Translations under genes and position numbers: made by a program | Shown: one piece after another, positions 138-18,660 of the stretch | Numbering within the stretch: position 1 is the first letter of the stretch | How the letters are laid out: every line of letters starts with the position of its first letter | The notes under the pieces: generated by a model | Databases searched by the model: none | Told to the model about the DNA's origin: nothing | Seen by the model: the letters and a program-made list of their open reading frames with translations, nothing else | Virus record (IMG/VR): IMGVR_UViG_2917045514_000007 | Location: 44,755 to 64,754 of that record | Source: an uncultured virus (IMG/VR IMGVR_UViG_2917045514_000007) | Taxonomy: Duplodnaviria > Heunggongvirae > Uroviricota > Caudoviricetes | DNA length: 20,000 nt | Direction: 5' to 3' (one strand)

Positions 138-404
138 CTACCAGGCCTGCTCGCCCCTCTCCTGCTCCTCCCACCTCAACGTGACGCTGCCGTCATCGTT
201 GAAAGTCAGATCAATGCCGTCCGTCTCGGCCAACACTTCCATAATCCCTTCCCAGGCCTCGTCTGCATCCGTGTCCAGACGGTGAATAGTTACTGTCCGA
301 AGCTCTTGGGCCTTCGGCGAGTTGATCATCTGGGTCACCCGCAACCCTAGCTTCTCACCCGCGGTGAGAACCTGGGCTTCCTGCTTTTTCTTTTGCTTGG
401 CCAT
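138..404 (-). CDS. DUF1654-like small protein (88 aa), probably SOS-regulated
   Basis: ATG at 404 with GGAGGT RBS (409-414, minus). Sequence 'EKLGLRVTQMINSPKAQ...VTIHRLDTDADEAWEGIMEVLAETDGIDLTFNDDGSVTLRW' resembles Pseudomonas DUF1654 proteins. Confidence 0.75.
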   Translation of the reverse strand: MAKQKKKQEAQVLTAGEKLGLRVTQMINSPKAQELRTVTIHRLDTDADEAWEGIMEVLAETDGIDLTFNDDGSVTLRWEEQERGEQAW

Positions 405-419
405 AAGCACCTCCACAAG

Positions 420-435
420 CTGTATATCCATACAG
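420..435. promoter_or_regulatory. LexA (SOS) box CTGTATATCCATACAG
   Basis: Matches the gammaproteobacterial CTGT-N8-ACAG consensus and overlaps the -10 of the minus-strand promoter upstream of the DUF1654-like gene. Confidence 0.85.
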
Positions 436-460
436 TATTACCAGGGCCCCTACTTTTCAA
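432..460 (-). promoter_or_regulatory. Sigma70-type promoter for the DUF1654-like gene
   Basis: Minus strand TTGAAA (460-455), 17 nt spacer, TACTGT (437-432). Confidence 0.65.
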
Positions 461-494
461 GAGCGCTATTTTGATTTTTTTAATACCGCAGGTC

Positions 495-523
495 TTGACC
501 AATAATATGACCGCTGATAATTT
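495..523 (+). promoter_or_regulatory. PL-like early promoter
   Basis: TTGACC (495-500), 17 nt spacer, TAATTT (518-523) in an AT-rich patch at the head of the long + strand operon. Confidence 0.55.
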
Positions 524-813
524 TCACGCCATCGGCACAGAAACTCGTGACGACAGAACAGGCCACAGCGAGCCAAGGCCTTGCCGACAGGCAGAACGGG
601 ATTCAGGGGACGCCTCGCCCCGGGTGTGCAGCTTCGAGCACCGCAAGCGAGAGTCGGCAGCAAAGCGTGGCCGGCTGTCGGGATCTCAGGTCCCCCGAGA
701 AAGCATTCGCCCAGCCGGAGGTGGCGCGTAACGCCGGCCAGCAACACCGATTTCTCAGATGCCCTTCGCAAGAGGGGCATCGAAGAAGTCAACACGCCCT
801 GGAGGGCAAGACG

Positions 814-1020
814 ATGAATGAAAAGGCCTTACTGGCTTTACGTCAGTCTCTTCGAATCATTCGCAGGGAGAGCGATGTACACCGAGCGCGCATCGAGTAC
901 TACGAAACGGTCGGGATGTTGCGCGGATTGCACTACGGCGGAGCGATCGATTCCTGGCAGCTATTAGCTCTAACCGAGCTAGCAGGAAGCGCATACATCA
1001 ACGCCGGTAAACCCTGGTAA
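814..1020 (+). CDS. Hypothetical phage protein (68 aa)
   Basis: GGAGG RBS at 801-805 before ATG 814 (MNEKALLALRQ...). The longer ORF from 547 runs through a structured leader. Confidence 0.7.
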   Translation: MNEKALLALRQSLRIIRRESDVHRARIEYYETVGMLRGLHYGGAIDSWQLLALTELAGSAYINAGKPW

Positions 1021-1030
1021 GGAGACTGAA

Positions 1031-1237
1031 ATGGCTCAATTCAACATCGATTCCCACCTGAGTGACGGAAAGAGCCTGCAATGGCTTGCTCTGCCGGACG
1101 CTGGTGAACAGCCTCTGGACGTTGAGGTGAAGGTTCGCCAGGCGGCCATGAAGAAGTTCGGACAGTCCGTCTTCTTCAATTGTTGGGAGCACGTAGTTGC
1201 CAGCAACGGCTACATCACCGTGCGGATGCATGCGTGA
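1031..1237 (+). CDS. Hypothetical phage protein (68 aa)
   Basis: AAGGAG RBS directly after the previous stop; compact operon spacing. Confidence 0.75.
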   Translation: MAQFNIDSHLSDGKSLQWLALPDAGEQPLDVEVKVRQAAMKKFGQSVFFNCWEHVVASNGYITVRMHA

Positions 1238-1254
1238 TGTAAGGAGTCGACCCG

Positions 1255-1479
1255 ATGACAATCATTCACGAATGCGACCGGTGCAACGCGCCCGGTCGCG
1301 TGATCGAGACGTCCGACGGATTCCGCTGCGATGGTTGCTACGAGGAGGCGCAGGAGCAGGTGCGCAGCGATGCGAGCTGCCCCGAGTGTGGGCGCCTGGG
1401 GGTGACGGCTACCGGAATTTGTTACGCCTGTGAGAACACTGCCCCGGTTCGCCGGGGCATCACCGAGGAAAGGACATGA
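1255..1479 (+). CDS. Small Cys-rich putative double Zn-ribbon protein
   Basis: AAGGAG RBS at 1241-1246; four CxxC motifs (CDRC, CDGC, CPEC, CYAC). Confidence 0.7.
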   Translation: MTIIHECDRCNAPGRVIETSDGFRCDGCYEEAQEQVRSDASCPECGRLGVTATGICYACENTAPVRRGITEERT

Positions 1480-1634
1480 GCAACTACGCGCTGAACATCT
1501 ACAACGCTTGGGTTGGCGAAATGGACAAGCTGAGCCGCAGCGGCCGCCAGACAAGAGCCAAGTATCTGAAGGTTCGCAAGCTGGCGATTCTCTTTATTCG
1601 AGCTGGCAGCGTGCGTGCGGCCTTCCCGCTTTAA
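1476..1634 (+). CDS. Small basic hypothetical protein (52 aa; not in ORF track)
   Basis: GAGGAAAGGA RBS, ATGA overlap with upstream stop; MSNYALNIYNAWVGEMDKLSRSGRQTRAKYLKVRKLAILFIRAGSVRAAFPL*. Confidence 0.65.
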   Translation: MSNYALNIYNAWVGEMDKLSRSGRQTRAKYLKVRKLAILFIRAGSVRAAFPL

Positions 1635-1696
1635 CCCGCAGCCCTGCCCGTAGCAGGGCATCACCAGCCCCACCGAACTCTATCCGGAGACACACG

Positions 1697-1909
1697 ATGA
1701 AGCGAAACGCCAACCCGGCGGCGACCGTTGCTGCCTGGAATTCCGCATACCCCGCCGGCACCGAGGTCAACTATCGGTTTCATCGCCACGCCACGCCGAA
1801 GCGCACCCGGACGACAACCGAAGCCCAGGTCCTCGGCGGCCACACCGCTGTCGTCTGGCTCGCGGGCGTGTCTGGTTGCGTTGCCCTTTCCCACTGCGAG
1901 CCGGCTTGA
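1697..1909 (+). CDS. Hypothetical protein (70 aa), paralogue of the C-terminal domain of the adjacent CsrA fusion
   Basis: GGAG RBS, ATG 1697 (MKRNANPAATVAAWN...). 27/66 ungapped identities by hand to the C-terminal half of 1944-2315. Confidence 0.8.
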   Translation: MKRNANPAATVAAWNSAYPAGTEVNYRFHRHATPKRTRTTTEAQVLGGHTAVVWLAGVSGCVALSHCEPA

Positions 1910-1943
1910 GCCCGCGCGCCCAGCATCCTGAACGGAGGCACAC

Positions 1944-2315
1944 ATGCTGATCCTCACTCGCCGAGTCGGCGAAACCCTGCACATTGGCGACGACATCACC
2001 GTGACCGTCGTCGAGAACAGAGGCGGCCAGATCCGCCTCGGAATCGTTGCTCCGGAAGCGATGGCCATTCATCGCGCCGAGATCTACGCCCGGGTTGGCG
2101 CCGTCCGGTCCGCCTCACCCAAAGACCTGGTTGAAGAGTGGAATCGCACGCACCCGGCCCAGGTGGCCGTTGAGTACCGTCCGCTCCGCGACTCCATCCC
2201 CATCCGCACCAGAACGCTCACTCAAGCCAAAGTTTCCGCCTCCGGCATGGCGGTGATCTGGCTAGAAGGTCAGGCCACGCCGGTGCTGCTGCGCAACTGC
2301 ACTGCTGTTTCCTGA
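1944..2315 (+). CDS. csrA: CsrA/RsmA-family RNA-binding regulator with extra C-terminal domain
   Basis: N-terminus [23 protein letters not shown]...QIRLGIVAP...IHRAEIY is colinear with RsmA/CsrA, including Arg44; GGAGG RBS. Confidence 0.92.
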
Positions 2316-2335
2316 GCCCGTTTCATCCCCCCCTT

Positions 2336-2359
2336 GCCCGGCTCCGGCCGGGCTTTTTT
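2336..2359 (+). terminator. Rho-independent terminator
   Basis: GCCCGGC-TCCG-GCCGGGC followed by T6. Confidence 0.85.
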
Positions 2360-2457
2360 CACCGCCCACATTCGCATGAACGTTCCCCGACTCCCCGCCG
2401 AGCAAGCCCGGCGGCGCGAGCGTTCAGCCGAATGCAGGTGAATACGGAGCACACGCC

Positions 2458-2961
2458 ATGATCGACCCACGAGCGAACAGCCTGGAGAAACTGGTGCCGC
2501 CGGCACCGCTGCCCCACGTCAGCCGCGGCGCGCTCAAGCGCATCAAGCATCCTCAGCCAATCCCCTCCGGCTGCCCGCACTGCGGCGGCCTGGTCCGGCT
2601 GGTCAGCAACCGGGTGATCTACGGTCGCGAGTACGGCGACTGGCCATATGCATACGCCTGTACTGGCACGGGCTGCGGCGCTTACGTGGGCCTGCATCCC
2701 GACACCGACATCCCGCTGGGAACGCTGGCCGACAAGCCGCTGCGCGACGCTCGCAACCGCTGCAAGCGCCCATTCGAACGCATCTGGCGCGACAAGCTGA
2801 TGACGCGCAGTCAGGCCTACGCCTGGCTCGCCGCTGAACTCCAAATCACGCCGCCCGAATGCCACTTCGGACTCTTCGACGTTGACCGGTGTGAGCGGGC
2901 CAAACGCATCTGCGACCAGTACCTGGAAGCGATCTACACCAGTTCAGCGAGGTGGGGATGA
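2458..2961 (+). CDS. DUF3268-like zinc-finger protein
   Basis: CPHC...IYG...YAC..CGAYVGLHP.T.IPLGTLAD..LR...RSQAYAWLA..L......CHFGLFD pattern. Confidence 0.8.
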   Translation: MIDPRANSLEKLVPPAPLPHVSRGALKRIKHPQPIPSGCPHCGGLVRLVSNRVIYGREYGDWPYAYACTGTGCGAYVGLHPDTDIPLGTLADKPLRDARNRCKRPFERIWRDKLMTRSQAYAWLAAELQITPPECHFGLFDVDRCERAKRICDQYLEAIYTSSARWG

Positions 2962-3107
2962 TGTGGACATACCGCGAGCGCCACAACCGCGCAGCGTTCA
3001 ACTGCGCCCAGCAGGCCTGGGACCGCGAAGTCGATCCGCTCTGGGACCAGCCGGACCCGGAGCCCGAGGACGAAGAGCAGGAGGACGAAGATGGCCTTCA
3101 GCGATGA
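2961..3107 (+). CDS. Small acidic hypothetical protein (48 aa; not in ORF track)
   Basis: GAGGTG RBS, overlaps upstream stop; MWTYRERHNRAAFNCAQQAWDREVDPLWDQPDPEPEDEEQEDEDGLQR*. Confidence 0.6.
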   Translation: MWTYRERHNRAAFNCAQQAWDREVDPLWDQPDPEPEDEEQEDEDGLQR

Positions 3108-7561: not shown

Positions 7562-8782
7562 ATGTGGTTCCGCAACCTGCAAATCTACCGCCTCACCCAA
7601 GACCTGCAAATCGACGCCGCGGCGCTGGAGCAGGCCCTGGCCAGCAAGCCGGCACGCCCCTGCGAAAGCCAGGAACTGACCACCTACGGCTTCGCCGCTC
7701 CGTTCGGCAAGGGCCCGAACGCACCGCTGGTGCACGCCAGCCGCGGCTTCCTGCTCATCTCCACCCGAAAGCAGGAGCGCCTGCTGCCCGGCAGCGTAGT
7801 GCGCGACGAACTGGCCGAGAAGGTCGAGCAAATCGAAACCGACCAGATGCGCAAGGTGTTCAAGAAGGAGCGCGACCAGCTCAAGGACGAGATCGTCCAG
7901 ACGCTGCTGCCACGGGCTTTCATTCGCAAGTCCAGCACGTTCGCCGCGCTGGACCTTGAGCAAGGCCTGGTGCTGATCGACACCAACAGCGCAAAGAAGG
8001 CCGAGGACCTACTGTCCACCCTGCGCGAAGCCCTGGGCTCGCTGCCGGTACGCCCGCTCAGCGTGAAGGTCGCGCCCAGTGCAACCCTCACCGACTGGAT
8101 GAAGGACCAGGCCGCCGGCGGCGACTTCCACGTGCTGGACAGCGCGGTACTCGCCGACACCCACGAGGACGGCGGCAAGGTCGTGGCCACCCGCCAGGAC
8201 ATGACCAGCGAGGAAATGCAGTTACACCTGTCCTCCGGGAAGCTGGTCACCCAGGTGGCCCTGGCCTGGTCGGACAAGCTCAGCTTCGTGCTCGACACCA
8301 AGCTGGCGATCAAGCGCCTGCGCTTCGACGACCTGCTGCAGGAGCAGGCTGAGAAGGACGGCGGCGACGATGCCGCCGGCCAGCTCGACGCCAGCTTCGT
8401 CCTGATGATGCTCACCTTCCGCGAGTTCATACCGCAACTGCTGGAGGCCTTGGGCGGCGAAGAGTTCCCGCAGGGAATCGACGGTGCGTACGATGAGCCC
8501 GAGCCAGCGCCTGGCGCCGGCATCGACGTAACCAAGGCGCTAGGGATGCGCGACGGTATCACCGCGACCCTCCATATCCCCCAGGTCAACGGGCCCGGTG
8601 ACGACCCGCTGCTGAAGGAGGCCATCCGCTTCGTCCGCGAGACGCGCCGCGCTTCGATCTCCGCCATCCAGCGCAAACTCAAGATCGGCTACAACCGCGC
8701 GGCACGCCTGGTAGAGGAAATGGAATTGCTGGATATCGTCGGGCCGATGCAGGGAGACGGATCTCGCGAGGTTCTGTCGTGA
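7562..8782 (+). CDS. rdgC: Recombination-associated protein RdgC fused to C-terminal FtsK-gamma domain
   Basis: [11 protein letters not shown]...ERLLPGSVV...[14 protein letters not shown]...GSLPVRPL is RdgC. The last ~60 aa ([41 protein letters not shown]...GSREVL) are an FtsK gamma winged helix. Confidence 0.92.
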
Positions 8783-9132: not shown

Positions 9133-11763
9133 ATGACCGCCTATGAAGACTTCTTGCGAGCGAAGGTCCGCCTCGCCGAGCCGAAAGGCTTCGAAGTGGA
9201 GCCCTCGGCCTTCAACCCCCTGCTCAAGCCGCACCAGCGCGCCATCGCCACCTGGCTGGTGCGCCAAGGCCGCGCGGCCTGTTTCGCGGCCTTCGGCCTG
9301 GGCAAGTCGGTAATGCAGCTTGAGGTGGTGCGCGTCACCCGCGACCTAGCCGGCGGCTACGCTCTCATCACCATTCCGCTGGGTGTGCGCCAGGAGTTCT
9401 ACCGCGACGCCGCGATGCTCGGCATCACCGTCCGGTTCATCCGCAGTTTCGACGAGGTAGACGACCCCGCCACCATCTACCTGACCAATTACGAGACCGT
9501 CCGCGACGGCAAGCTCGACCCTCGCCGGTTCAGCGTGGCAAGCCTGGACGAAGCCAGTTGCCTTCGCGGCTTCGGCGGCAGCAAGACGTTCCGCGAGTTC
9601 ATGGCTCTGTTCGCTGGTGACGATCGCGCCGCCGGCGTCCGCGGCGATGGCGTCCGGTACCGGTACGTGGCCACTGCCACGCCAAGCCCGAACGAATACA
9701 TCGAGCTACTGGCTTACTCGGCCTTCCTCGGCGTGATGGATGTCGGCCAGGCCAAGACCAGGTTCTTCAAACGCAACTCTGAGAAGGCCGACCAACTCAC
9801 CATCCATGCCCACAAAGAGGGCGAGTTCTGGATGTGGGTGGCGTCCTGGGCGATCTTCGTTCAGCGCCCCAGCGACCTCGGGTTCAGCGACGAAGGCTAC
9901 GCGCTACCGGAACTGGACATCCGCTGGCACGAAGTACCGTCCGACCACTCGCACGCTGGCCATGAGCGTAACGGCCAGGGCCGCCTGCTTCGCAACACCG
10001 CCATTGGCGTGCAGGACGCCGCCGCAGAGAAGCGCGAGAGCCTTCCTGCCCGGATCGCCAAACTGATGGAGATCCGGGCCGAGGCTCCAGATGCTCACCG
10101 GATCATCTGGCATGACCTCGAGGCGGAACGCCACGCGATCGAGGCCGCTATCCCCACCGCCATCAGCGTCTACGGCGCCCAGGATCTGGAGGAGCGCGAG
10201 CGCGCGATTGTCCAGTTCAGCGACGGCGAGTTCCAGGAACTGGCTGCCAAACCAGTGATCGCAGGCAGCGGCTGCAACTTCCAGCGCCACTGCTCGTGGG
10301 CCATCTACCTGGGCATCGGCTTCAAGTTCAACGACTTCATCCAGTCCATTCACCGCCTGCACCGATTCCTGCAGACAGGCCGTGTGCGCATCGACCTGAT
10401 CTATACCGAGGCCGAGCGCGACATCCGCCGCCAACTCGAACGGAAGTGGCAGCAGCACAACACCATGGTTCAGCGCATGACCGAGATCATCAAGCAGTAC
10501 GGCCTGTCCGTGGCCGCCATGGCACAGACCCTCACCCGCTCCATGGGCGTGGAGCGCGTCGAGATCAAGGGCAAGGACTACACCATCGTCAACAACGACA
10601 CCGTGCTCGAAACCTGCCGCATGGAAAGCAACAGCGTCGGCTTGACCATCACCAGCATCCCCTTCAGCACCCAGTACGAGTACTCGCCGAACTACGCCGA
10701 CTTCGGCCACACCGACGACAACGCGCACTTCTTCGAGCAGATGGACTATCTGATCCCGGAACTGCTGCGCGTGACCATCCCCGGGCGTCTGGCCTGCATC
10801 CACGTGAAGGATCGCATCATTCCCGGCGGAATGACCGGCCTTGGCTTCCAGACCGTCTACCCCTTCCACATGGAAGTGACTCGAGCCTTCGTCAAGCATG
10901 GCTGGGCCTATATGGGCATGAAGACCATCGTCACCGACGTGGTTCACGAGAACGCCCAGACCTACCGCCTCTCGTGGACGGAACAGTGCAAGGACGGCAC
11001 CAAGATGGGTGTCGGCATGCCCGAGTACCTGCTGATCTTCCGCAAGCCCCCCACCGACAACTCCAACGCCTACGGCGACATTCCGGTGGTCAAGGCCAAG
11101 CCCCTGTGCATCGACGAAGACGGCCAGATCGTCCCCTTCGCCATGGACAAGAAGCTCACCGTCACCCGCGGCAACGGCTACAGCCGGGCACGCTGGCAGT
11201 TGGACGCCCACGGCTTCACCCGCAGCAACGGCAACCGTCCGCTGACTGAAGCGGACTTCGAAGGCATTCCGCACGACGTGATGTTCAAGCTGTACCGCGA
11301 CTACAGCCTGTCCACCGTCTACGACTTCGAGCACCACGTCCGCATCGGCGAATCGCTGGAGGTCACCGGGAAGCTGCCCACCGGCTTCATGCTGCTGCCA
11401 CCGCAGTCCTGGCACCCGGACGTATGGACCGACGTCGCCCGCATGCGGACGCTCAACGCCCAGCAGTACAGCAAGGGCCAGGAAATGCACCTGTGCCCGC
11501 TGCAGTTCGACATCGTCGACCGGGCCATCGTGCAGTACTCCATGGAAGGAGACCTGGTCTTCGATCCCTTCGGCGGGATCATGACCGTCCCGTACTGCGC
11601 GCTGAAGCTCAAGCGCAGAGCCCGCGCCCACGAACTGAACTCCCGCTACTTCCTGGACGGTGCCGGCTATTGCAAGTCTGCCGAGGAAGAGATGGCCATG
11701 CCCGACCTGTTCGCCCTGCTCGAGGCCGAGGCCGACATTATCCATAAGGAACCCGCCGCATGA
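9133..11763 (+). CDS. SF2/SNF2-like helicase fused to an amino (N4C/N6A, beta-class) DNA methyltransferase
   Basis: AAGGA RBS before ATG 9133. Helicase motifs FGLGKS, LDEAS, TATPSPN, QSIHRLHRFLQ; MTase motif IV-like TSIPF precedes motif I FDPFGG. Confidence 0.85.
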   Translation: MTAYEDFLRAKVRLAEPKGFEVEPSAFNPLLKPHQRAIATWLVRQGRAACFAAFGLGKSVMQLEVVRVTRDLAGGYALITIPLGVRQEFYRDAAMLGITVRFIRSFDEVDDPATIYLTNYETVRDGKLDPRRFSVASLDEASCLRGFGGSKTFREFMALFAGDDRAAGVRGDGVRYRYVATATPSPNEYIELLAYSAFLGVMDVGQAKTRFFKRNSEKADQLTIHAHKEGEFWMWVASWAIFVQRPSDLGFSDEGYALPELDIRWHEVPSDHSHAGHERNGQGRLLRNTAIGVQDAAAEKRESLPARIAKLMEIRAEAPDAHRIIWHDLEAERHAIEAAIPTAISVYGAQDLEERERAIVQFSDGEFQELAAKPVIAGSGCNFQRHCSWAIYLGIGFKFNDFIQSIHRLHRFLQTGRVRIDLIYTEAERDIRRQLERKWQQHNTMVQRMTEIIKQYGLSVAAMAQTLTRSMGVERVEIKGKDYTIVNNDTVLETCRMESNSVGLTITSIPFSTQYEYSPNYADFGHTDDNAHFFEQMDYLIPELLRVTIPGRLACIHVKDRIIPGGMTGLGFQTVYPFHMEVTRAFVKHGWAYMGMKTIVTDVVHENAQTYRLSWTEQCKDGTKMGVGMPEYLLIFRKPPTDNSNAYGDIPVVKAKPLCIDEDGQIVPFAMDKKLTVTRGNGYSRARWQLDAHGFTRSNGNRPLTEADFEGIPHDVMFKLYRDYSLSTVYDFEHHVRIGESLEVTGKLPTGFMLLPPQSWHPDVWTDVARMRTLNAQQYSKGQEMHLCPLQFDIVDRAIVQYSMEGDLVFDPFGGIMTVPYCALKLKRRARAHELNSRYFLDGAGYCKSAEEEMAMPDLFALLEAEADIIHKEPAA

Positions 11764-16677: not shown

Positions 16678-17220
16678 TTAAGGGTCCCGCCCTTGGAACG
16701 TGTCGTAGGTCAAATCAACCATACTTTTATATCGATCTGTAACAAAATCTGAAAGACGCATATAAAGATCAATAGCTTTAGAGTTTACAACAGCAATACG
16801 CCGTTCACGATCTGCCTCAGGCATTTTGCTACTAATTTCTGAATCAAGAGTTGCCGAGTCACGCAGATCAGCTATCTTTTCTACGGCAAAGTTCATAATT
16901 CTAGGCTCTGCTGTCCAATGCGTTAGCTTCCGGCACTTTCGCTCAAGCAAGGAAACTTTATGCTCAACAAAGTTACATTTCAAATCAACAGAACACGCAA
17001 ATAACCGTGCAGCCAAATCTGTATTATCGTCTTCGCATCTCCCCCAAAAATCGGAAACATCACTCACGATCTCTTGAAGCATCTTCTCGATCGCTGCAAC
17101 TATCGCATTCGCCTCAGATTGTCTAGCAAGCGATCGCGAATTATGATAAACAAAAATCCAACCAACGATTCCAATAATTACTGAAACGACCGCGGCCCAG
17201 TTAAAATCACCGCCCACCAT
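16678..17220 (-). CDS. Single-TM helical hypothetical protein (180 aa), third gene of AT-rich cargo operon
   Basis: N-terminal TM WAAVVSVIIGIVGWIFVY, then a predicted helical soluble domain; start overlaps the upstream gene by 14 nt. Confidence 0.8.
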   Translation of the reverse strand: MVGGDFNWAAVVSVIIGIVGWIFVYHNSRSLARQSEANAIVAAIEKMLQEIVSDVSDFWGRCEDDNTDLAARLFACSVDLKCNFVEHKVSLLERKCRKLTHWTAEPRIMNFAVEKIADLRDSATLDSEISSKMPEADRERRIAVVNSKAIDLYMRLSDFVTDRYKSMVDLTYDTFQGRDP

Positions 17221-17563
17221 TATTTTCAGGCCTCGCCTCGCGAATGTACTTATCTATATTATTCAACACACTTTTATAACGGCTTTTATAACCGACCCGC
17301 TTCCGCACCTCTTCTGGAGTGAAGCCCTCATATTTAATTAGCCCCCCAAATACCTCATCCAGAAAAGATGAACCACTCCCCAGCACCCCAGTTAAGTCAA
17401 CTTCAACGTAATCATACTCTTCTAAGGCTTTGAGCAAGAACTCCTTTCTGAATCGAACACCATTAAACTCCGGATTATCAACCTCGGAGCGACCATAAGG
17501 CATATCAGTAAAATCTTTTGCCACATCAATTATCTTAATCAAACCTTTATTCATTTGAATCAC
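17207..17563 (-). CDS. STAS-like (DUF4325-type) protein
   Basis: 'PYGR...NGVRFRKEFLLKAL...VEVDLTGVLGSGSSFLDEVFGGL' fits the DUF4325 signature. GTGA overlap with the upstream stop; an alternative ATG is at 17554. Confidence 0.85.
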   Translation of the reverse strand: MIQMNKGLIKIIDVAKDFTDMPYGRSEVDNPEFNGVRFRKEFLLKALEEYDYVEVDLTGVLGSGSSFLDEVFGGLIKYEGFTPEEVRKRVGYKSRYKSVLNNIDKYIREARPENNGGR

Positions 17564-18660
17564 CCTGGGACTTTAAGCTTGATATTCCATTGAATCAAGG
17601 TTCCATGAAATTCAAACGGAAGCGGCCTAGCCTCCTCTCTCTGCCCCTTTGTTTGGTATTGATACCAACCACTACCACTATAGATCATTAGCGTTCCCAT
17701 TGGATTCGCTTCGACAAAATCTTTTGCTTCGGACAGACCTTTTCCGCGCCCGCTAGTATTGAAGCGAGACTTCCCATAGTCGACAGCAGCCTTAATACTT
17801 GCAGCATCGCGAAATGCTCTTGCGGGAAATGACGGACTAATTTTCAGAAACTTTCTCACGACACGATAAGCATCTTTCATCATACCAACCACATTTGACT
17901 TAATGGATAAGGTCTTTGGAATACCCACACCCATGTCATAAACACCTATAAAAAGCTGATCCTCAATCAGACGAACAACAATCCACCAATTCTGCAAATG
18001 AGCAGGGAGATCCAGTTCGAATTCTTTAGCATACCCATGTTGCCAAACATTACCAACAGATTCCGTAATCGCAGCGAAAGCTAATCCGCCTTGTTCATCC
18101 TCTTTAGAACTTTCAAATATATCTTTCACATATGAAATAACAGACCGAAGCTCCGTTTGTTCTGCCCCACCCTCTTTATCCTCGGATGAAGCAGTACAGA
18201 TAGGAACCCCGGGAACCTTCGCATCCTTAAAGTTAGGACGGCGCTCTCGCATCAAGTCCCAAAAGCCTAAAATCTGAAATTTTCTCGCTATATTAAGATT
18301 GCAACAAGCAGTTGATTTAATAATTTTTGAATTTCCATGAAGCTTTTGCAACTGCTCTATATTTGCATACAAGACAAGTAGTGCTGCGACCTTTACAGCA
18401 CGCACAGGTTTGAAGTCAAGAAGAACCAACCCACTAGAGCAAGCTTGTCTGATACTATTTATAAATTTCCAAAATTCATCATAGCCCGAACCAAAAAAAT
18501 TAAGCTCTTCCGGCGCAACAACTACAATTCGAGAGCCGATCCGTGATTTGAGTTTCAGCTTTCTTTGAGGATCATATTTACGTGGATTTCTAGCGATCAA
18601 CAGTGCACGCCTAGTAGCATTCCTTTGCCGAATAAAATCAGAATCCCTTAACTTTTTCAT
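17560..18660 (-). CDS. STAS-like + GHKL (HATPase_c) ATPase/kinase
   Basis: Bergerat-fold motifs: N-box ITESVGNVWQHG, G1 YDMGVGIP, G2 GRGKGL, G3 HGTLIQW. N-terminal 'VLLDFKPVRAVKVAALLVL' is STAS-like. No HisKA or sensor TM visible. Confidence 0.85.
   Translation of the reverse strand: MKKLRDSDFIRQRNATRRALLIARNPRKYDPQRKLKLKSRIGSRIVVVAPEELNFFGSGYDEFWKFINSIRQACSSGLVLLDFKPVRAVKVAALLVLYANIEQLQKLHGNSKIIKSTACCNLNIARKFQILGFWDLMRERRPNFKDAKVPGVPICTASSEDKEGGAEQTELRSVISYVKDIFESSKEDEQGGLAFAAITESVGNVWQHGYAKEFELDLPAHLQNWWIVVRLIEDQLFIGVYDMGVGIPKTLSIKSNVVGMMKDAYRVVRKFLKISPSFPARAFRDAASIKAAVDYGKSRFNTSGRGKGLSEAKDFVEANPMGTLMIYSGSGWYQYQTKGQREEARPLPFEFHGTLIQWNIKLKVPG

Follow-up and report, generated by a model that had tools for sequence, protein, structure and literature searches.

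The CsrA homologue analyzed here is, judged by its identity to named members, RsmM/Bci, whose gene lies in the early region of temperate P. aeruginosa phages of the F116 and phi297 types, and its C-terminal tail is predicted to be a separately folded SH3-like domain that is also encoded by a free-standing gene immediately upstream. In our preferred reading, which we regard as probable, RsmM acts like the plasmid-encoded regulator RsmQ, the tail contributes either stability or a contact to another protein, and the free protein independently keeps the ancestral role of its own family. The RsmM protein is already known and named, and the two-part module that had been proposed for this DNA in an earlier note is poorly supported.

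The window, i.e., the whole stretch of 20,000 nucleotides that was analyzed, represents the final 20 kb of a 64,754-base provirus record and is near-identical to phages F116, LKA5, H66 and PA8. Its genes include DUF1654, exonucleases, SSB, RdgC, methylases and AlpA, and on the basis of gene content and near identity the source virus can be grouped with the F116-like P. aeruginosa temperate phages. The free gene and the fusion gene sit in an early operon adjoining the immunity region with a gap of 34 nt between both ORFs (Table 1), and the whole virus record contains exactly two copies of the shared domain and one csrA domain.

Table 1. Features of the gene pair and its flanks (window coordinates).
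Feature	Position	Strand	Basis
Free-standing gene, F116 gp25 orthologue, phrog_9165, 70 aa	1697..1909	+	ORF and profile searches
rsmM/bci-type gene, F116 gp24 orthologue, phrog_5527, 123-aa CsrA fusion	1944..2315	+	ORF, PHROG, identity
CsrA domain, aa 1-52 of the fusion	1944..2099	+	profile match, 29 alleles
C-terminal SH3-like domain (predicted), aa 55-123 of the fusion; diverged paralogue of the upstream gene	2106..2312	+	alignment, model, tree
Ribosome-binding site of the fusion, ACGGAGG, includes ANGGA motif	1932..1938	+	sequence
Intrinsic-terminator-like hairpin with U run, 3' of the gene pair	2336..2360	+	sequence, folding
Leader hairpin 5' of the free gene, of the type found near 758-781 and 1440-1459; close to cassette exchange points	1644..1662	+	

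The terminator-like hairpin behind the gene pair is not a conserved boundary, as a T run 3' of the fusion was found in just 20 of 123 loci. Contigs from 4 of the 24 listed RNA runs cover both genes and one of them (X5, 1671-2339) stops at this terminator, but such contigs can show neither expression nor transcript ends. The ribosome-binding site of the fusion contains ACGGA in 122 of 123 loci; autoregulation via this motif was considered and rejected as non-specific, because the DUF3268 gene has a similar leader. Between the terminator and the DUF3268 gene lies a long stem-loop (2363-2440, z -3.0) without Rfam match. The Rfam scan of the window gave no match that reached the gathering threshold, and at 400-3000 the matches were at chance level only, which gives no sign of an Rsm-type sRNA in this region, nor of a known motif before DUF3268.

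Several further observations concern the architecture of the window. The leader hairpins at 758-781, 1440-1459 and 1644-1662 each end with GGGCATC and are each located 5' of early genes. In contigs of other strains the segments 769-1440, 817-1663 and 1478-1632 are replaced, with ends at or near these hairpins, which suggests that the hairpins are cassette exchange points. A palindrome, CTGT-N8-ACAG (420-435), which we take to be LexA-box-like, sits where the DUF1654 gene (138-431, minus strand) starts. A low-GC (43-52%) insert of three genes on the minus strand (16678-18660), located beside an integrase-like ORF, encodes a 180-aa protein, a STAS-like DUF4325 protein and a weakly HATPase-like protein and looks like a moron, either a signalling or a defence unit. 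Furthermore, RdgC is fused to an FtsK gamma domain (7562-8782), and a helicase-like region is fused to an N6/N4 methyltransferase (9136-11763), followed by a C5 methyltransferase.

The assignment of the fusion to CsrA, which the earlier note had made from the letters alone, was confirmed, as residues 1-51 pass the cut-offs of PF02599 (77.9 bits versus 27), NF002469 (81.5 versus 73) and TIGR00202 (73.8 versus 70.1). L4, R6, R7, Q29, R31, H43, R44 and I47 are invariant in 29 of 29 distinct alleles; this includes Arg44, whose retention had been claimed, and together with H43 it belongs to the pocket residues described as important for RNA binding (PMC7366521; PMC9928087). The protein is 99.2% identical to F116 gp24 (YP_164288.1), 100% to the CF24a protein and 62.6% to Bci of AUS531phi. 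All eight P. aeruginosa phage alleles, F116 included, have been named RsmM (Sobrero and Valverde, 2020; PMC7366521), with F116 and CF24a included in Table 3 of that paper, and near identity to these named members in combination with an extended structured C-terminus places the fusion in this subfamily. The published subfamily shares the phage location and a longer C-terminus, which adds one helix and two short strands and has been proposed as a protein-interaction scaffold; in the parts of PMC7366521 covered here, however, the extension is neither recognised as an SH3-like domain in its own right nor linked to the paralogous upstream gene or to a wider family. Every named full-length match of the fusion is from P. 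aeruginosa, and the fusion was also detected in one of 401 Pseudomonadaceae genomes (L390). Full-length fusions were found solely as proteins of 122-123 aa, with alleles down to 64% identity. A different arrangement was seen in a 140-aa metagenomic protein (P0197), which consists of two tandem CsrA domains.

Two published relatives give an idea of how RsmM might act. Bci of prophage AUS531phi (Ambroa et al., 2020; PMC7546807) is likewise a 123-aa protein with its CsrA domain at 1-51 in the same genomic slot, but it belongs to another allele class, AUS531phi carries no free copy, and the tail is not analyzed in the portions of the paper covered. Deletion of bci weakened infection and raised the transcripts of lasR, rhlR, qscR and pqsR, and in the presence of bci motility was decreased while biofilm and pyocyanin were increased (PMC7546807); a complementation of the knockout was not found in the sections of this paper covered. 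RsmQ of plasmid pQBR103 is also a CsrA homologue of a mobile element, which binds AnGGA via H43/R44, binds RsmY/Z, heterodimerises with host Rsm proteins and causes a motile-to-sessile switch (PMC9928087). It differs in being plasmid-borne and in a predicted model that was reported to resemble the host Rsm proteins very closely; the parts of PMC9928087 covered mention no additional domain. By analogy, RsmQ would be the best model for the action of RsmM. Since bci deletion has the phenotypes described and RsmQ heterodimerises with host Rsm proteins, it also seems plausible that RsmM acts on the host Gac/Rsm network, as had been suggested for this DNA. More generally, csrA genes are common in phages and have been proposed to damp CRISPR-Cas (PMC8450108).

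Position 38 of the fusion, on which the earlier note is silent, is D, E or N in 29 of 29 alleles (E in the window's copy), whereas 97 of 104 ordinary CsrA matches have K or R there, a basic residue that is typical of CsrA/RsmA but not defining. K38 of CsrA contacts RNA. The acidic residue or asparagine in every RsmM allele might therefore lower RNA affinity, and together with the bulky tail the charge reversal in all alleles would fit a protein that is chiefly an antagonist of RsmA, i.e., a weak-binding heterodimer subunit that lowers repression by the host RsmA. Lower motility in combination with higher biofilm and pyocyanin is the direction expected from reduced RsmA activity. Such changes are what bci brings about (PMC7546807), and heterodimers of CsrA-fold proteins exist (PMC9928087). 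Nevertheless, we consider a mainly antagonistic role rather unlikely: all other pocket residues, including H43 and R44, are invariant, RsmQ binds RNA and yet gives a similar motile-to-sessile switch, the transcripts of quorum-sensing regulators are lower with bci (PMC7546807), and the sole passage on the K38 contact that we found comes from a ligand-docking study, which puts K38 in the pocket (PMC5668361).

Turning to the tail, the gap-free alignment of the C-terminal extension with the upstream 70-aa protein, reported before at 27 of 66 identical residues, was reproduced exactly; the best ungapped match has 28 identities, while 5,000 shuffles averaged 10.6 and never exceeded 17. Pairwise BLASTP returned 28 of 65 identities without gaps (E 5e-17), and the PHROG profiles of the free protein and the fusion match each other in both directions. 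AlphaFold2 predicts the free protein with a pLDDT of 92.5 as a helix (7-17) followed by five strands, and the fusion tail (pLDDT 90-96) with the same elements and topology, while the overall pTM of the fusion of 0.54 suggests two independent domains. According to these models the shared domain consists of an N-terminal helix and a five-stranded SH3-like barrel in which a short helix precedes the last strand.

The fold search that the earlier note had recommended thus delivered a confident SH3-like fold but neither a specific match nor a function. The listed matches are mostly Tudor, PWWP, chromo-barrel, BAH and ribosomal barrels with Z scores of 6.7 at most, with ties and none standing out. 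With Tudor, PWWP, chromo-barrel and KOW the domain shares the five-strand topology (Z 5-6.7, with an rmsd of about 2-3.5 A across 50-60 residues), but identity is 25% or less and the shared domain has an additional N-terminal helix, and function cannot be transferred from these matches. Uncharacterised phage proteins with a TM of up to 0.92 are also among the fold matches. No Pfam family, Tudor, PWWP and KOW included, and no NCBIfam family matched the free protein, and Pfam was also blank for 18 domain members. A lead to the R67 (type II) dihydrofolate reductase (DHFR_2), which came from the Atlas only (0.80, 0.76), was discarded, as none of the 18 members has the Pfam match and the active-site strand motif of this enzyme is absent from the domain alignment.

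As the closest folds also include a PWWP domain bound to ssDNA, an integrase C-terminal domain and ribosomal large-subunit proteins (KOW-type by inspection), the tail might be a second nucleic-acid-binding domain of KOW- or PWWP-like type that redirects RsmM to phage transcripts. A net charge of +3, which makes the tail mildly basic, and the invariant R90 and R117 would be in line with this idea. However, matches at this Z level are generic for this barrel, and nucleic-acid binding would be of no obvious use to the acyltransferases that carry the same domain (see below), so that we regard this function as improbable.

At the residue level the fused copies keep the core positions N15, A43, V52, W54 and L64, whereas H49, C61 and H66 are lost in all of them and G21, G48 and T50 in nearly all; the window's tail lacks all six. 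These lost residues are 88-95% conserved in the sampled family, a sample that is biased to top matches sharing these words. Following the SH3 topology, H49, T50 and H66 would be located on the usual ligand face. In addition, the tail has acquired new invariant residues that are specific to its lineage.

The profile of the domain matched 3,122 clusters at E <=1e-3 and 1,058 at 1e-10, and 104 of 192 aligned stretches are extended by over 40 residues on one side or both, a few of these being spurious fragments. None of the 94 and 21 longer family proteins scanned has a CsrA partner; the partners found are scattered and comprise DUF4326, a phage Zn-finger, DUF5131 and weak Ead/Ea22 matches. One retroelement-like protein of 2,851 aa (P0161) was discarded as spurious. 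A 528-aa protein contains three tandem copies of the domain (P0037), and in two clusters the free gene is joined to Zn-ribbon or DUF3268 neighbours (P0006, P0008). In two other clusters (P0010, P0011) the N-terminal half of the free gene is joined to the C-terminal half of a phi297-type tail, implying that the CsrA part was lost through recombination between the paralogues; a simple script search found no such chimeras in the fetched loci, and they are known solely from these protein clusters. Large Pseudomonas plasmids hold a free domain gene and csrA as well (NZ_MT732194.1, 308911-309102 and 397503-397655). We do not count them as a second linked pair, as both genes are about 88 kb apart in this plasmid and the flanks in three records are without annotated csrA.

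A second home of the domain was found on enzymes. Residues 333-394 of PDB 3g87, a malonyl-CoA-ACP transacylase that is not among the fold matches listed, match the domain profile with E values of 5e-9 and 2e-10. The family of G001, which was reached via a Paraburkholderia locus, was represented by 298 scored genomes; 14 of them match the domain, and in 11 of these 14 the match covers the C-terminal ~65 aa of Acyl_transf_1 proteins of 358-408 aa from Burkholderiaceae (L376-L386). Profile-profile comparison links the acyltransferase tail to the domain family (98.9%) and to the fused tail (94.5%). Both the domain family and the C-terminal position are thus shared with RsmM, although here the domain is attached to an enzyme and W54 and C61 are replaced by Tyr. 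At one locus (L377) the acyltransferase gene is followed by an ORF that reads, by inspection, as a free-standing ketosynthase. Two of the 11 acyltransferase hosts have 0.5-Mb genomes, with 21-22% GC at the loci, and the retention of the domain on an enzyme in such reduced genomes suggests a useful generic role, for example docking or stabilisation. The presence of the tail on unrelated proteins also fits a generic interaction module. Beyond the papers cited here, the literature searched, which covers few subscription journals, contained no account of the tail as a domain, of its paralogue or of the acyltransferase domain.

With regard to its origin, the eight fused domains form one clade with a long branch (SH-aLRT 99), and this clade groups with the window's free protein and P0126 (SH-aLRT 91) in a tree built with a quick method from 74 columns and rooted at the midpoint. 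As the fused copies are one clade beside the free gene, the tail likely goes back to a tandem duplication of the upstream gene, after which one copy was fused to csrA. Among alleles that are more than 85% identical, pN/pS comes to 0.22 in the free gene, 0.19 in the CsrA half and 0.11 in the tail, which points to purifying selection on both copies of the domain, with none of the three parts decaying. That the tail is a neutral passenger of an accidental fusion is therefore very improbable: small phage domains of this family are indeed fused to many unrelated sequences and chimeras of neighbouring genes occur, but the tail has the pN/pS of 0.11, the length has been kept over the whole range of alleles, and the lineage-specific invariant residues are new in the tail.

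The remaining question is whether the free gene is a dedicated partner. The proposal made for this DNA was that the shared domain associates with itself and that the free copy binds the RsmM tail and thereby tunes or antagonises RsmM. The CsrA fusion that this proposal starts from is real and conserved, and purifying selection on both copies would be in line with a partnership. In 73 of 80 listed loci the free gene is at least 90% identical to ours, i.e., of the P. aeruginosa type, and all 73 have the fusion downstream, 51 adjacent and 22 with inserts. Among 47 loci with full flanks found via the gene at 814 (19 short ones were set aside), the free gene is present in 8 of the 14 that have the fusion and in none of the 33 that lack it (Fisher p 1e-5). 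The co-occurrence across phages that the earlier note proposed to check hence applies to the free gene but not in the opposite direction. Among at least 124 loci centred on the fusion (L216 and L237 are one contig), 72 have a free copy, 51 show none in the 4 kb before the fusion and one is too short; 3 of the 72 copies are broken or partial and 22 are spaced by 0.1-1.1 kb. The fusion alone is present in 11 of 46 phage records (duplicates counted), including AUS531phi and phi297.

This one-way co-occurrence can be explained by linkage, because an unrelated neighbour at 3091 is no less closely tied to the fusion, the two occurring together in 50 of 51 loci with complete flanks once 11 short ones were excluded; a one-way dependency of the free gene on the fusion would give the same pattern. 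Moreover, the alleles do not co-vary: 5 of 23 free alleles are paired with both tail classes, and the distance between free genes is 0.049 within and 0.054 between these classes, despite a difference of 0.39 between the tails themselves. The conserved surface residues are unlike between the two copies, and none of 37 loci of distant free homologues has csrA nearby (flanks of 3-4 kb, with a positive control). Altogether, there is little to support the free copy as a dedicated tuner or antagonist, a role that we consider unlikely, and the free gene is probably not a dedicated regulator of the fusion.

In the RsmQ-like reading that we prefer, RsmM would be made early in infection, and its CsrA half would dimerise with itself and probably with host RsmA and would bind GGA motifs in mRNA leaders and in RsmY/RsmZ, as the conserved residues and the precedents suggest. 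On the same grounds, post-transcriptional control of the host would be shifted to the benefit of the phage. The tail, with its predicted fold kept and its conserved surface remodelled, appears to be retained by selection and most likely serves as a protein-contact or stabilising appendage, while the free gene would be an optional accessory that belongs to a widespread domain family of mobile elements and resides in the same recombining early-gene module. A more specific version, to which we assign a small but real chance, assumes that the SH3-like domain is a portable protein-docking module of polyketide-associated acyltransferases and phages; the remodelled copy in RsmM would then tether the CsrA dimer, or a heterodimer with RsmA that position 38 makes weaker, to one particular protein of the host or the phage. 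RsmM would thereby be an Rsm regulator targeted by protein contact, which the free copy might modulate in those phages that have it.

CsrA homologues of phages and plasmids are an established route of mobile elements into the global regulation of their hosts, of which RsmM is a named example and its relative Bci one with a published deletion phenotype. What is added here is the tail as a separate, predicted folded domain, its free paralogue, the second home of the domain on acyltransferases and the change of charge at position 38. The domain represents a new family at the Pfam level with more than 3,000 clusters, and its recognition is a useful annotation rather than a new kind of system.
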